DNA of 43,598 nucleotides from Candidatus Krumholzibacteriia bacterium (lineage in GTDB: Bacteria; Krumholzibacteriota; Krumholzibacteriia; LZORAL124-64-63). Under the pieces are notes generated by a model. It searched no databases and was not told where the DNA came from. It worked only from the letters and a program-made list of their open reading frames with translations. This document shows, one piece after another, positions 35,416 to 39,884 of the stretch (the stretch's first letter is position 1; each line of letters opens with the position of its first letter). The stretch lies in NCBI GenBank assembly GCA_036351155.1, contig JAZBOO010000110.1, positions 1-43,598 of the forward strand, read 5' to 3'. The translations under genes and the position numbers were made by a program.

Positions 35416-37170
35416 TCAACGTGAGGCTAAGGACTCGTCCAGCGGAGGCAGGGGAGTGGTTCCGTAAACGTGCGCTTCCAGCCAGTCGTGACAGTCGATG
35501 TTGGTCAGGATCAAGATGGCCTCTTCCAGCTTGGCCCGGGTCAATCCTTGCTCGTCACGCGTCTGGTAAAGATGCCGCAACACCAGGTCCAGTGGTGCCC
35601 TCTGGCCGGATCGCTCGCCGATGTAGCGGTCCAGGGCCATGCACGCCGCCGTGGAACCCGCATAACCGTAGCTGATGATGTCTCGACCGGCCATGACCTG
35701 ACTGGCGGCCTCGGCGATGGGGATTTTTCCCATCAGGTCGCTCCCGGCGTAATCCCGCTCCACGCGGGCCCGGATGATGGCACGCGAGTGCTCCAGCTCC
35801 CATATCCCGGCCGCGGCCAGGATGCGTGAGGAATACCAGGTGGTGGCTCCTTCGGTGAACCACAGGGTGCTGGGATCGGTCTGCTTGATGGCCTCGCCCA
35901 GCCAGCCGTGGAACATCTCGTGAGCAATCACGCTGGCGGCCTGTTCCTGCAGTACACCCCACGTGGTTTGCGGGTCAATCAGGACCAGCACCGAGTTGCC
36001 TGTGTGTACGCCGTAAACATCGAAGCCTTCGGGGGAATGGACTTCATTGGCCGCCAGCAGTACCGTGATCTGATCGGACGGGGCCGACCCGAAAAAACCG
36101 ATTTCTGTCCGCGCCACCGAACGGACCAGATTCATGACCCGTTCGTCGGTGAAATACCAGTCGCGATCGGTGGCATACTGGATGACACAATCCCTGGCCT
36201 GGTCAGAAAGCACCCGCAGGTTGCCGCAGATGATCAAGCTGTTGTTCAGGTCGGCCAGATTTCGGGGATGGTAGAAAAGGTTGGCCGGCACCGGCATCGC
36301 CGTGGTGGGTTCATCCTCGGGATCCCGTGCCGTGCCCAGCCCCGGCGCGGACTGGCCTGGCTGAAAACCCTCGCCGAAACCCAGGTGGGCATCCTGGGCG
36401 GGCGCACGATCGGCCGCCATTCCCGGGAAGGCTGCCGTCTGGTCGTTGCGCACCAGAGCGGGCCAGGGCACCAGCAGTTCCAGATTGTGGGGATTGTGAA
36501 TGGTCACCGTGAGGTCCTTCACCGGAACTCCCACCGGCTCCAGGAACACCTCGAACCCGGCCGCCCGAATTCCCCCGTTCACCTGGGTCGAAATATGACG
36601 CCGGATGTCCGTCTCCAGGCTGCTGCTGGGCATCAGGTCCACCCGGTAAATGAACCCGGTCCGCCTGGCCCCATCGGTTTGCAACCGCCAGCCATCCTGG
36701 GTGGGATCGATGATCAGATGCCTTCCCTGGCTCCCATCCTCCCCGATGGCGTGGGCAATGGGGGCACTGATGGTGACTCCGTTGTCATCTCCATTCACCC
36801 CGGGGGGGAACTCCAGATCCAGATTCCCGGGCAACGGTCCTTCGGCCAGCAAGGTGATGGTCAGGCTGCCCTGGGGGGCCTCCGTCAGGTCGATTTCATA
36901 GGTCAGCTCGATGGGCTTCTGAGGGTGGGGCAACAGAGGCCACGCCACCGCCACCAGCAGCAGGAGAATCACCAGCAGACGCACCGCTCTCCACTGGGCT
37001 TTCCTGCTCGGACGGGGGTCGGCTTCGTCCGGGGAACCCGCCCCCTTCTCGGGCGTGTCGGGCTTCTCCCCCCGGCGAGCCTTGTAGCGTTCCAGTGCGG
37101 TTTGCGATTTCCTGGACAAGCTGGATCTTCCTCTGCACGGTTTCTGCGGCCGGTGTTTTTTCCGGAACAA
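35416..37170 (-). CDS. Membrane-anchored gluzincin metallopeptidase (M61/M1-like)
   Basis: IAHEMFHGW plus downstream WFTEGATTWY; basic N-terminus, one TM, then LTYEIDL; start uncertain (TTG 37170 chosen). Confidence 0.75.
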   Translation of the reverse strand: MFRKKHRPQKPCRGRSSLSRKSQTALERYKARRGEKPDTPEKGAGSPDEADPRPSRKAQWRAVRLLVILLLLVAVAWPLLPHPQKPIELTYEIDLTEAPQGSLTITLLAEGPLPGNLDLEFPPGVNGDDNGVTISAPIAHAIGEDGSQGRHLIIDPTQDGWRLQTDGARRTGFIYRVDLMPSSSLETDIRRHISTQVNGGIRAAGFEVFLEPVGVPVKDLTVTIHNPHNLELLVPWPALVRNDQTAAFPGMAADRAPAQDAHLGFGEGFQPGQSAPGLGTARDPEDEPTTAMPVPANLFYHPRNLADLNNSLIICGNLRVLSDQARDCVIQYATDRDWYFTDERVMNLVRSVARTEIGFFGSAPSDQITVLLAANEVHSPEGFDVYGVHTGNSVLVLIDPQTTWGVLQEQAASVIAHEMFHGWLGEAIKQTDPSTLWFTEGATTWYSSRILAAAGIWELEHSRAIIRARVERDYAGSDLMGKIPIAEAASQVMAGRDIISYGYAGSTAACMALDRYIGERSGQRAPLDLVLRHLYQTRDEQGLTRAKLEEAILILTNIDCHDWLEAHVYGTTPLPPLDESLASR

Positions 37171-37312
37171 CCGGATGGTTCCCTGTTGTTCCTGATTGTT
37201 CCCTGTCGTTCCTCGAATTGAGGACCTCACAGTCGGAGGATGCAACCGCCGTGCCGCTGTACTATGCTCTGGGCGACAATAACTTTTCCTTCCCGTGAAA
37301 GGTCGCCGAACG

Positions 37313-38125
37313 ATGGATCTCAAGTTGCGCGGAAAAACCGCGCTGGTCACCGCGGGCAGCCGGGGATTTGGCAGGGCTGTGGCCCTGGAACTGGCGCGCG
37401 AGGGCGCCCACATCGCCATGTGCGCTCGAGGCGAAGAAGATCTGGCGCAGGCCGCCACCGAGGTCCGTGCCGCCGGCAGGGAAGTCTGGGGCGAAGCGGC
37501 CGGCAAGCTCCTCATCCAGCCGCTGGACGTGACCGACCACGAGGCCGTCTCCGGCTTTGTGACCCGTGTCGAGAACGAGCTGGCGCCGGTGGATCTCCTG
37601 CTGGTCAATGCCGGCGGCCCCCCCGCAGGGAACTTCGAAGACCTGGAGCTTTCCCACTGGGAGGCGGCCTACCGCCTGACCATTGAAAGCGCCGTCCGTC
37701 TGTGCCAGCTGGTCTTGCCGGGCATGAAGGCCCGGGGCTTCGGTCGTATCGTCAGCATCACCTCCGTGAGCGTGTGTCAACCGGTGGAGAACCTGGTGCT
37801 CAGCAGCGTTCTGCGCCCGGCCATCCAGGCCTTGACCCGCACCCTGTCGGCCGAGTCGGCCGCGTATGGCGTGACCGTCAATGCCGTGGCTCCCGGCTTT
37901 CACACCACCAGCGCCGTGGAGCGGCTGATCACCAAGAAAGTGGAGCTCACCGGCTGCACCCCCGACGAGGTGATTGCCGGCTGGACCCGGGAAATCGACA
38001 TGGGCCGCCTGGGCAGACCCGAGGAGCTGGCCGCCTTGATCGTTTTCCTCATGTCCGAACGCGCCAGCTATATCACCGGGCAGGGCATTGTGTCGGATGG
38101 GGGCTGGGTCAAAGGCCACTTCTAG
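37313..38125 (+). CDS. Short-chain dehydrogenase/reductase
   Basis: MDLKLRGKTALVTAGSRGFG, VNAGGPP, GVTVNAVAPG, GRLGRPEELA and SYITGQ...DGG motifs. Confidence 0.93.
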   Translation: MDLKLRGKTALVTAGSRGFGRAVALELAREGAHIAMCARGEEDLAQAATEVRAAGREVWGEAAGKLLIQPLDVTDHEAVSGFVTRVENELAPVDLLLVNAGGPPAGNFEDLELSHWEAAYRLTIESAVRLCQLVLPGMKARGFGRIVSITSVSVCQPVENLVLSSVLRPAIQALTRTLSAESAAYGVTVNAVAPGFHTTSAVERLITKKVELTGCTPDEVIAGWTREIDMGRLGRPEELAALIVFLMSERASYITGQGIVSDGGWVKGHF

Positions 38126-38138
38126 GAATTCGCCCGGC

Positions 38139-38166
38139 TTGACATCCCGGCCAATGAAGCTACATT
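38139..38166 (+). promoter_or_regulatory. Sigma70-type promoter
   Basis: TTGACA (38139-38144), 16-nt spacer, TACATT (38161-38166). Confidence 0.65.
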
Positions 38167-38261
38167 ATCGGTCAACGAGTTGCGAAGATATAAGGCTGAA
38201 CTGGAGGCTTCCTCCTTCTTGGTGTCAGCCCATTGACTGACTATTTTCGAAAGATCAGGCC

Positions 38262-38426
38262 ATGCTTGAGTTTGCCCTTTTCATCGTATTCTGGATTGTC
38301 CTGGTGAATTTCATATTCCCCAAGATGGGCCTGAAGCCCGGTTGAGGCCCCAGCGCCTGCTCGATCGGCGATCGGGAACCGGAGAACAAAAAAACCACCC
38401 AACCGGAAATCAAGCCCGGCGAATAA
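38262..38426 (+). CDS. Putative small membrane selenoprotein (54 aa, Sec28; 27 aa if UGA is a stop)
   Basis: MLEFALFIVFWIVLVNFIFPKMGLKPG-UGA(38343)-GPSACSIGDREPENKKTTQPEIKPGE-TAA; hairpin 38360-38376; TAA ends 3 nt before the GGAGG RBS of the next gene. Confidence 0.6.
38360..38376 (+). promoter_or_regulatory. Candidate bacterial SECIS element 1
   Basis: CTCGATC-GGC-GATCGGG stem-loop; loop starts with G, 21 nt after the UGA. Confidence 0.5.
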
Positions 38427-38441
38427 AGTGGAGGTGTGGCG

Positions 38442-38666
38442 ATGCCACTTTATGAGTTCACCTGCAAGAAATGCGGACACAATTTCGAAGAGTTGATGAC
38501 CCTCAGCGAAGTCGAGTCCGGCAAGACCAAGTGCCCGGCCTGCAGCTCGAAACGCCTCGAGCGCGGTTTTTCCAGCTTTGCCACCGGCGGTGGGGACAGC
38601 CTGGGCTCAGGTGGGTTCTCGGGCGGCGGCTGTGGCAGTGGCGGCGGCGGCTTCACCTGAGGCTAG
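38442..38666 (+). CDS. FmdB-family zinc-ribbon protein, probably a selenoprotein ending in -FT-U-G (ends at 38660 if UGA is a stop)
   Basis: MPLYEFTCKKCG..FEEL...CPACSS..LER.FS.F, then Gly-rich tail CGSGGGGFT-TGA-GGC-TAG; GGAGG RBS. Confidence 0.85.
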
Positions 38667-39761
38667 CCAGCCAGGGCGACCGTGTGTCGTCAACAAGATC
38701 ATGCGCGCCGGAAGCCTCGGGTTTCCGGCGTTTTTTCTGAGAGTGGGCCGATAGGACGGCGAACATTCCCGGACCTGGGATGACCGCTGATGCACCAGGG
38801 CATGACACGCACTGCACAGCGTGGTCAGGTTCTCGGGATCGTGGGTCCCGCCCCGGGCGCGGGGGATGATGTGGTGGATCTCCAGGAAGTGGGTGTGGGG
38901 GCAGCCGGGAGTCTGGCACCGGTGGCGGTCGCGGGCGAGGACCAGGCGCCGCGTTCTGGGCGGAATGGTGGTGGTGTTGCGGTGGTCTGGCTCGCTGATC
39001 TGGGCGTCGCACTGGAGGCGCGCGGTTTCCTCGGGCGAAAGCGTGAGCTCCCCGCGCGCCGTCTGGACCGTGGTCTTTTCACAATCCGGGCACTGGTGCA
39101 CGTGGATCTGGACCGGGGGCGCCGTGGTGGGTTTTTCCAACGGGTTGGAATTTCCATCAACGAAATTCTGCATCACTTCCAGCAGCGCCTCGACCTTGTC
39201 TGCCGGCAAGCCGCCCTGCTTGCGCAGCTTCTCCCACAGGGCTTCGTAGCGGGCCAGCTGGGTGGGTGTCATTTCCAGGATCACGCGCTGGGGGATGGGG
39301 GCGGCCGGCACGGGCTCCTCGGGAAAAATCGCCACCTGTCCTTTCGCCACCTCGGCAGCCCGGGCCTTGGCTTTTTTCACCGTGCTTTTCAACCGGGCGT
39401 GCGACTGGGTCAGCGCCAGATCCACCCACTCCTTCTCGGTTTCCGGACTGGCCACCGCCACAATGGTGCGGGTGCGGCCATACCCCAGCTTCCCCTCTTC
39501 GACCTTCTTTTTCACAGCGGGCAGCTCATCCAGCTTCTCGCAGATCTTCATGAAGTCGTAGGCCTTGGACTGACTCCAGCCCAGCTCCTGCTGGGCATAC
39601 AGGGGCATGGAGGAGTACCCCAGCTCACGGTACAGCTTCCGCTGGCGAATCTCGCCAAACCAGAGAATGGCGTTCTGGCGGGCCATTTCCATGGCGTGGT
39701 TTGCTTTTTTGAGGTGCTGGTCGGCCGATTTGGCGGGTAATCCCTTAATAAACGTGAGCAT
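38607..39761 (-). CDS. HNH endonuclease with N-terminal HTH-like region (DUF222-like architecture)
   Basis: C-terminal IPPRTRR.VLARD..RC..PGC.....LEIHHI.P...GG......NL.TLC..CH...H; N-terminal YRELGYSS...YA..ELGWS.SKAY; GAGGA RBS before ATG 39761. Confidence 0.88.
   Translation of the reverse strand: MLTFIKGLPAKSADQHLKKANHAMEMARQNAILWFGEIRQRKLYRELGYSSMPLYAQQELGWSQSKAYDFMKICEKLDELPAVKKKVEEGKLGYGRTRTIVAVASPETEKEWVDLALTQSHARLKSTVKKAKARAAEVAKGQVAIFPEEPVPAAPIPQRVILEMTPTQLARYEALWEKLRKQGGLPADKVEALLEVMQNFVDGNSNPLEKPTTAPPVQIHVHQCPDCEKTTVQTARGELTLSPEETARLQCDAQISEPDHRNTTTIPPRTRRLVLARDRHRCQTPGCPHTHFLEIHHIIPRARGGTHDPENLTTLCSACHALVHQRSSQVRECSPSYRPTLRKNAGNPRLPARMILLTTHGRPGWLASGEAAAATATAAAREPT
38675..38691 (+). 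promoter_or_regulatory. Candidate bacterial SECIS element 2
   Basis: GGCGAC-CGTGT-GTCGTC stem-loop; loop 20 nt after the UGA, with G at loop position 2. Confidence 0.5.
38706..38736 (+). terminator. Intrinsic terminator after the fmdB-like gene
   Basis: CGCCGGAAGCC-TCG-GGTTTCCGGCG followed by TTTTTT. Confidence 0.85.
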
Positions 39762-39884
39762 AGCGCTATCCTCGATCTTGAAGCCTTTGGGAGGCTTTAT
39801 CAAGATAGCGAACACAACACGAATCCGCCAGGAGAAAAGCGTAAAAAACACAAAATTCTAGAAAAACACCAGAGGGCCCCGACC

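Follow-up and report, generated by a model that had tools for sequence, protein, structure and literature searches.

A promoter-to-terminator unit of a Candidatus Krumholzibacteriia bacterium that probably encodes two small selenoproteins, a membrane peptide and an FmdB-type zinc ribbon

The window analysed here is the whole of a 43,598-nt stretch of DNA (contig JAZBOO010000110.1 of assembly GCA_036351155.1, forward strand) from a Candidatus Krumholzibacteriia bacterium, whose assembly is 97.6% complete. An initial annotation of this window had proposed that a single promoter-to-terminator unit encodes two tiny selenoproteins, referred to here as ORF1 and ORF2 (ORF, open reading frame), each of them with an in-frame TGA read as selenocysteine (Sec, U). 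Every feature described at that time is present, that is, the promoter, both TGA codons followed by GGC, the hairpins, the terminator and the peptide motifs, and our comparison with related genomes supports the inference drawn from them, with a probability that we put at roughly 0.8. Very probably, as judged from sequence conservation, translation runs through both UGA codons, which are conserved along with their hairpins, and within the phylum the two genes occur together. The predicted products are a membrane-anchored and a soluble zinc-ribbon Sec microprotein, as the annotation had anticipated. That ORF1 is a selenoprotein is hardly in doubt, and that ORF2 contains Sec is also highly likely, with somewhat less assurance.

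ORF1 (38262..38426, plus strand; ATG at 38262 and TAA at 38424-38426) encodes a predicted single-helix membrane selenoprotein of 54 residues. After 27 codons the frame meets a TGA (38343..38345, plus strand), which is followed by GGC, and continues open to the TAA. With this TGA read as Sec, at residue 28, the protein is MLEFALFIVFWIVLVNFIFPKMGLKPG-U-GPSACSIGDREPENKKTTQPEIKPGE, where we find after U the sequence GPSACSIGDR, and thus the U-GPSA-C motif (UxxxxC) in the form originally written. Residues 1-19 have a mean Kyte-Doolittle hydropathy of 2.49, and values of 1.83-2.81 were obtained for 40 homologues. A set of 208 genomes of the phylum was used for comparison, and a six-frame read-through search, run on 61 genomes, gave 36 best ORF1 matches with one in-frame TGA each and with alignments that span both sides of it. 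In the alignment of the 40 homologues P20, U28 and C33 are invariant, and at least 90% of the rows retain G23, P26, G36, D37 and R38. Moreover, past the TGA every homologue has an open frame up to a later stop, and G-P-x-x-C is preserved ahead of the hairpin described below. The profile built from this alignment matches 144 of the 208 genomes, with a family distribution (families numbered f1 to f9) that goes from 86/90 in f1, 39/43 in f3, 5/8 in f7, 7/13 in f8, 4/10 in f6 and 1/1 in f9 to 1/12 in f5 and none in f2 (0/7) or f4 (0/23). All ORF1 matches listed in the 144 genomes carry the TGA, bar one short partial match, and neither TAA nor TAG occurs at the Sec site of ORF1 or ORF2 in any homologue found. 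Retention of the TGA and conservation downstream of it, which had been suggested as checks on the proposal, were therefore observed for ORF1, as U-x4-C followed by S-I/V-G-D-R.

A hairpin resembling a bacterial selenocysteine insertion sequence (SECIS), CUCGAUC-GGC-GAUCGGG, is found at 38360..38376 (plus strand). It comprises seven pairs and overlaps the codons of S-I-G-D-R, with a GGC loop that starts 21 nt after the TGA; across homologues the GGN loop is the Gly codon of S-I/V-G-D-R. Pairing is kept in variants such as CGAUC/GAUCG, CGGUC/GACCG, GAGGUC/GACCC and AUACCGG/CCGGUAU. On the hairpin alignment, for which the structure was set by hand before pairs were counted, 82.9% of the cells were paired, against 24-55% when the partner was slid by 1-3 columns. 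Double-change cells numbered 16, compared with 7.3 ± 1.9 in 500 shuffles (500 were used for each covariation control), none of which reached 16, and double changes from A-U to G-C were observed in 13 sequences. The overlap of the hairpin with a conserved peptide motif indicates that the RNA structure may shape the protein sequence. A stronger version of this idea, that the residues past the second Cys are kept solely for the RNA, was weakened by close Cys forms that retain similar residues.

The ORF1 family is also found outside the phylum, where 196 loci were confirmed among species-representative genomes and 80 of them were retained and analysed. These 80 loci span Acidobacteriota, Binatia, Deltaproteobacteria/Thermodesulfobacteriota, Chloroflexota, Verrucomicrobiia, Armatimonadota, Planctomycetota and Rokubacteria records, and the codon at the Sec site is TGA in 70, TGC or TGT in six, and could not be parsed in four. 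The TGA forms from other phyla have an equivalent hairpin over the codons D-V-E-S-R-R; the folding energy after the codon failed to separate TGA (mean -12.7 kcal/mol, n=70) from TGY loci (-11.8, n=6). In a large protein database, relatives of ORF1 appear mostly as stubs of 26-29 residues that end just before the TGA. The same database contains full-length Cys forms (entries P0002, P0004-7, P0009 and P0010), all of them with G-V-P-T-C-x4-C, together with a few relatives with W or G at the Sec site (P0008, P0028 and P0003). Homologues with a Cys codon at this position, which the initial annotation had advised to seek, thus exist for ORF1 both as TGY loci and as database proteins. The gene selA was present in 4/5 genomes with the Sec form and 2/5 with the Cys form, a small sample of genomes of uncertain completeness. 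No Pfam or NCBIfam family matched ORF1, and its 40 homologues gave NCBIfam matches at chance level only.

ORF2 (38442..38666, plus strand; ATG at 38442, stop TAG at 38664-38666) is preceded by a GGAGG Shine-Dalgarno sequence (38430..38434, plus strand, 7 nt before the ATG) and encodes an FmdB-family zinc ribbon of 74 residues, which scored 62.5 bits with TIGR02605 (cut-off 31.3) and 54.7 bits with PF09723 (cut-off 34.4). Its in-frame TGA (38658..38660, plus strand) occupies the penultimate codon, residue 73, and is followed by GGC (38661-38663) and the TAG, which results in a C-terminus ...GGGCGSGGGGFT-U-G that contains the motif CGSGGGGFT-U-G as it was first described. For the analysis of ORF2, 60 loci of the phylum were read, every one picked for having an ORF1 match, and the counts that follow come from the 52 with a complete FmdB gene 3' of ORF1. 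Four cysteines forming two CxxC pairs (C8, C11, C31 and C34) and U73 are invariant in the alignment. The first stop codon is TGA in 52/52 loci, with a second in-frame stop one codon further in 19 loci, two in 18, three in 10 and four in five; as background, 8.6-9% of the long TGA-ending frames of the host genome have a stop 1-4 codons later. Preceding the TGA we find G-F-T in 19 loci, G-F-S in nine and G-F-G in seven, and a Cys lies 4-11 residues upstream of the Sec in all loci. The sole other FmdB paralogue of the host genome has an ordinary degenerate tail, unlike that of ORF2.

A close-up view of the residues between the two stop codons reveals 22 tail peptides with synonymous codon variation. 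The commonest tail is a single Gly (18 loci; GGC in 11, GGT in six and GGG in one), closed by TAG, TGA or TAA. Ala-Ser occurs in seven loci, written GCC AGC, GCC TCG, GCA TCC or GCG TCC and closed by TGA or TAG, so that its Ser is encoded by both AGC and TCN. NPFR (three loci; AAC CCC TTC AGA or AAC CCG TTT AGA, then TAG) and GPRW (two loci; GGC CCC AGG TGG or GGC CCC AGA TGG, then TAA) differ at silent sites only. The tails APC, SVC, AGC and GGC, found in one locus each and closed by TGA, create a U-x-x-C end in four lineages. The 22 tail types and the three kinds of second stop imply many separate changes, the arrangement being kept each time. Retention of the TGA and of what follows it, one of the checks proposed for the pair, was in this way observed for ORF2 in all 52 loci. 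Among the best 120 of 2,162 relatives of ORF2 in the protein database, 119 end exactly at G-F/G-T/S/G/A, immediately before the TGA, and one is frameshifted. The prediction that standard gene callers would mishandle both genes was thus borne out, since with TGA taken as a stop they shorten ORF1 to a stub and ORF2 by its end, leaving two very probable selenium proteins unlisted. Separately, at one locus (L019, G009:C139) the FmdB homologue is frameshifted within the Gly-rich run and then lacks a TGA or stop, which points to a fault in the assembly or to a gene that is broken.

The second SECIS-like hairpin, GGCGAC-CGUGU-GUCGUC (38675..38691, plus strand; six pairs), is located in the 3' untranslated region of ORF2, separate from the terminator in the window. 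Its CGUGU loop starts 20 nt after the TGA and has a G at the second position. In the corresponding alignment 93% of the cells were paired, against 32-54% when slid, with 33 double-change cells (8.3 ± 2.4 in shuffles) and a covariation score of 0.489 (0.179 in shuffles); 0/500 shuffles reached either the score or the double-change count. With a simple hairpin finder, 45/52 loci had a loop that begins 16-23 nt past the TGA, and a different stem was picked in two; the frequent loops were CGUGN, GUC/GUU/GUG, GGN and CGGGN. The early loop G that had been pointed out for both hairpins, which falls within GGC (+21 nt) in ORF1 and within CGUGU (+20 nt) in ORF2, belongs in each case to a structure that covaries.

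Several observations weigh against reading the unit as a pair of selenoproteins. RNAalifold predicted no common fold from the alignment of the ORF1 hairpin, and in the f3 clade this hairpin is displaced by 2 nt and was scored as broken, which means that the pairing count understates it. Six ORF1 relatives from other phyla lack the second Cys (Arg, Trp or a missing residue is found there). An FmdB gene neighbours ORF1 in none of the 80 loci analysed outside the phylum, so the pair is not obligatory, and the case for a function is made of motif analogy and of the neighbours found in those phyla. As for ORF2, the 52 genomes that carry it are kin, so that the counts overstate independence; the nearest strong hairpin stands 32-39 nt after the TGA in 5/52 loci, three of which (L034, L042 and L053) have a U run after it and look terminator-like; and a Cys counterpart of its Sec was found neither in the best 120 of the 2,162 relatives nor in the 52 loci. 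The absence of a Cys form in those relatives and the distant hairpins, together with tails of just 1-4 residues and with TGA being the commonest stop of the host genome (65%), favour the alternative that survives best, in which ORF1 is a real selenoprotein while ORF2 truly ends at its TGA, the second stop is a back-up for leakiness of this UGA and the hairpin is a 3' element for stability or processing, or a terminator. Such a scheme leaves it to be explained why the first stop is TGA in every locus and never TAA or TAG, why a stop follows within 1-4 codons when only ~9% of TGA-ending frames genome-wide have one, and why tail residues persist through synonymous change (Ser by AGC or TCN) and U-x-x-C ends occur. 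The hairpin is also distinct from the terminator in the window and has G/U-containing loops at SECIS distance in 45/52 loci. We regard a true stop in ORF2 as improbable, yet as the most serious of the alternatives to two selenoproteins.

The host genome possesses the whole machinery for Sec insertion, whose search had been recommended: tRNA-Sec (66.5 bits, above the Rfam cut-off, and reported by ARAGORN as tRNA-SeC with anticodon tca), selA (377 bits), selB (SelB-wing_3, 50.3 bits) and selD (362 bits) were all found, and selA is present in 60/61 of the relatives searched. The selD gene (contig C334, L012) has itself an in-frame TGA (...KSAG-U-AAKL...) followed by the hairpin GAGUCC-GGG-GGACUU, with a loop 17 nt after the UGA. 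The ORF1 hairpin shares this build, namely an in-frame TGA, a short hairpin and a 3-nt GGN loop; selD is another protein and serves only as a local reference for the appearance of a SECIS in this organism. In the host genome, where TGA is not reassigned, it ends 65% of the 5,981 open frames that reach 200 codons or more, and in many relatives it also genuinely terminates ORF1 and the ORF2 tail. These data bear on a second alternative, in which a near-cognate tRNA (for Trp, Cys or Arg) or local codon reassignment, instead of Sec insertion, would account for the reading of both UGAs, as the W or G at the ORF1 site of P0008, P0028 and P0003 might suggest. With TGA in normal use as a stop, the full Sec machinery in the genome, hairpins of SECIS build and distance after both sites and Sec/Cys exchange at the ORF1 site, we consider it very improbable. 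Elsewhere in the genome, a weak match (17.4 bits) to NF041197 (CxxC_Se_CxxC) at G000:C66:10252-10323 (L135) has one in-frame TGA and may be a further small selenoprotein candidate.

The conservation of the gene pair, another point raised by the initial annotation, holds within the phylum (52/60 loci read). Among the first 40 loci ORF2 was close behind ORF1 in 37, with a gap of -1 to 55 nt in 36 and of 117 nt in one; the remaining three comprised one frameshift in the Gly run and two loci at a contig edge. Among 20 further loci ORF2 was behind ORF1 in 15, at 3-45 nt, or at 385-435 nt in family f8, and in the other 5/20 an FmdB gene was absent within 1.2 kb of ORF1. In family f1, where ORF1 was found in 86 genomes, the ORF2 type (E ≤ 1e-18) was detected in 84/90, and the four genomes without ORF1 (68-89% complete) are also without the ORF2 type. 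The promoter, the two TGAs with their hairpins and the order of the genes are all found again across the phylum, which speaks for more than a chance arrangement. A third alternative, that neither TGA is recoded and that ORF1 is a 27-residue membrane peptide followed by a conserved RNA leader controlling ORF2, could explain part of the conservation, given that the residues past the second Cys coincide with the hairpin, and is extremely unlikely in view of a frame that stays open past the TGA in all homologues, of G-P-x-x-C kept before the hairpin, of a Cys codon replacing the TGA in the same frame in six loci and of an ORF1 family present without ORF2 in other phyla. In family f8 (L143-L147), an ArsR-type helix-turn-helix (HTH) gene lies between ORF1 and ORF2, and the frame of this HTH gene ends with Cys-TGA in 3/5 loci.

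The signals that had been described as bracketing the unit were both located. The sigma-70-type promoter TTGACA-N16-TACATT (38139..38166, plus strand) has its -35 box TTGACA at 38139-38144, a 16-nt spacer and its -10 box TACATT at 38161-38166, with 10/12 matches to the consensus. It is kept across the family loci, since CTTGAC[AG]-N16-TAT.TT occupies the corresponding position in the majority of the 40 loci that were aligned; the surrounding kilobase has two promoter-like sites compared with 0.2 expected from shuffles. Just 3' of the -10 box a conserved motif, GTCAACGAGTTGCGAAGAT (38171..38189, plus strand; cross-locus consensus GTCAA..A..T..G.A..T), could serve as an operator or mark where a leader RNA begins. 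At the other end, an intrinsic terminator (38705..38737, plus strand) comprises a 12-pair stem at 38705-38731 followed by a T run. A scan of 38130-38760 with Rfam gave chance-level matches only. Two RNA libraries, each from a different study, yielded contigs that bridge ORF1 and ORF2 (X6, 38312-38543, with 0 differences; X20, 38320-38531, with 10 differences). This is a weak hint of a common transcript, since DNA carry-over could give rise to such contigs, which by themselves are no proof of transcription. X21, also among the RNA-library contigs, gave no cover, and cover gaps elsewhere carry no meaning.

Regarding the surroundings of the unit, an HNH/DUF222 endonuclease gene (38790-39851, minus strand) is located between ORF2 and a PAP2 gene, and its open frame extends across the terminator and the end of ORF2. 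It occurs in just 2/60 related loci and is probably a mobile insertion. On the other side, a long M1/M61 peptidase-like frame (35416-37608, minus strand) overlaps the start of an SDR gene (37295-38125, plus strand), and probably has its true start further downstream. The SDR and PAP2 flanks were tried as a functional lead and rejected, being syntenic within family f1 only (27 and 24 of 60 loci).

How could both UGAs be decoded and what could the products do? ORF1 would consist of an N-terminal membrane helix followed by P-K-M-G-L-K-P-G-Sec-G-P-S-A-Cys, probably on the cytoplasmic side, since the lysines after the helix suggest an N-out, C-in orientation. Its UGA would be recoded by SelB and tRNA-Sec under the guidance of the hairpin within the coding sequence. 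ORF2, which has no signal peptide, would be a cytoplasmic FmdB zinc ribbon with a flexible Gly-rich tail that carries one Cys and ends with G-F-T-Sec-Gly, and its UGA would be recoded with the help of the 3' untranslated hairpin that lies beyond the genuine stop. The U-x4-C of ORF1 would in this arrangement face the cytoplasm at the membrane, in the compartment shared with ORF2. Each of the two proteins combines a Sec and a neighbouring Cys within a segment rich in Gly and Pro, the usual architecture of a selenenylsulfide redox site, or of a site for soft metals or sulfane sulfur. By analogy, the selenol/thiol pairs of the two proteins (U-x4-C, and C-x(4-11)-U on a mobile arm) may form redox or sulfane-sulfur/metal-binding centres at the inner face of the membrane, with the ORF2 tail perhaps acting like the Gly-Cys-Sec-Gly arm of thioredoxin reductase. 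The initial annotation had suggested a redox or metal-sensing module, and we propose as a working hypothesis that ORF1 and ORF2 work at the membrane as a relay, either for redox reactions or for sulfur or a metal.

The neighbours of ORF1 in other phyla give this proposal a loose direction. A scan of 133 flanking ORFs from the 80 loci identified DUF302 (15 loci), Usp (nine), glycogen-phosphorylase-like (six) and acetate kinase (five) genes, followed by ArsR-type HTH, AcrB and ABC ATPase genes (four each), OsmC, Redoxin/AhpC and rhodanese fusions (three each), DUF1634 (two), and TauE, DsrE and MsrA (one each). The partners in the rhodanese fusions are a metallo-beta-lactamase fold, a CoA-disulfide-reductase-like flavoprotein and a YgaP-like membrane domain. 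Together with the ArsR-type gene of family f8, these neighbours give a loose hint of stress caused by reactive sulfur, selenium or metals. A broader and quite speculative scenario, which we think doubtful as a whole, would see ORF1 as the founder of one of the most widespread unlisted families of bacterial selenoproteins, ~55-residue Sec-x4-Cys membrane proteins from at least nine phyla or candidate lineages, which recruited ORF2, with its mobile C-terminal arm, in this phylum to make a two-part selenol relay on the inner side of the membrane for sulfane sulfur, persulfide, selenium or a soft metal, a bacterial counterpart of SelS and SelK.

If both proteins are as predicted, one new selenoprotein family (ORF1) and a new form of a known one (ORF2) would be added to the ~119 listed, and ORF2 would be a naturally occurring example, in bacteria, of a recoding signal that lies past the stop codon. 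The protein databases now have ORF1 mostly as stubs, where they list it at all, and ORF2 entries that lose the selenium residue, a mis-annotation that makes selenoproteome counts too low for this phylum as well as for Acidobacteriota, Binatia, Chloroflexota and the other lineages with ORF1. Moreover, the DUF302 genes, ArsR-type regulators and rhodanese fusions near ORF1 in other phyla offer a testable lead to sulfur or metal stress.

Among known selenoproteins, those closest to ORF2 are the catalogued FmdB proteins, predicted selenoproteins that share its zinc-ribbon family (TIGR02605 / COG2331). An ocean-metagenome study of 2008 (Zhang and Gladyshev, PMC2398784) reported such proteins with the motif CxxU, and a 2026 review gives them as UxxU in its Table 1 of 119 families (PMC13188914). 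In these catalogued forms Sec takes the place of a Cys in the CxxC zinc site, whereas ORF2 keeps the four cysteines of the ribbon and has its Sec at the penultimate position of a Gly-rich tail, with the hairpin beyond the stop codon. Neither a G-V-P-T-U-x4-C membrane peptide nor an FmdB protein with C-terminal Sec appears in that Table 1, and an earlier description elsewhere is possible; a motif search of part of the BSepDB supplement gave no match either. Literature searches on zinc-ribbon or transmembrane selenoproteins, and on Sec in the phylum named on some of the database relatives, yielded nothing relevant.

A Sec near the extreme C-terminus is found in the families UXX-star, KCU-star and SaoC (PMC13188914, Table 1), where it lies 1-3 residues from the end, as in ORF2. 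At such a distance the recoding signal must sit after the stop, and since these families are already catalogued in that table, a signal beyond the stop codon is a known kind of thing. The folds, as far as the same table informs on them, are unrelated to that of ORF2; NF041211, for instance, is glutaredoxin-like. NF041211 had no match in the host genome and NF041197 only the weak one mentioned above, with none at the locus. Neither ORF1 nor ORF2 matched any selenoprotein-specific NCBIfam model, and no selenoprotein model was among the 25 families most matched by 37 ORF2 homologues. A search of the ESM Atlas gave no more than an unnamed cluster (score 0.88).

More distant parallels are provided by other selenoproteins. 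Thioredoxin reductase ends with Gly-Cys-Sec-Gly, on a flexible Gly-rich tail with a partner Cys, and the eukaryotic SelS and SelK are membrane selenoproteins with a single membrane helix; Sec is the second or third residue from the end in these proteins. ORF1 and ORF2 have no sequence relation to any of the three, and in comparison with SelS and SelK the helix and the Gly-rich tail are here distributed over two bacterial polypeptides, each predicted to carry its own Sec.

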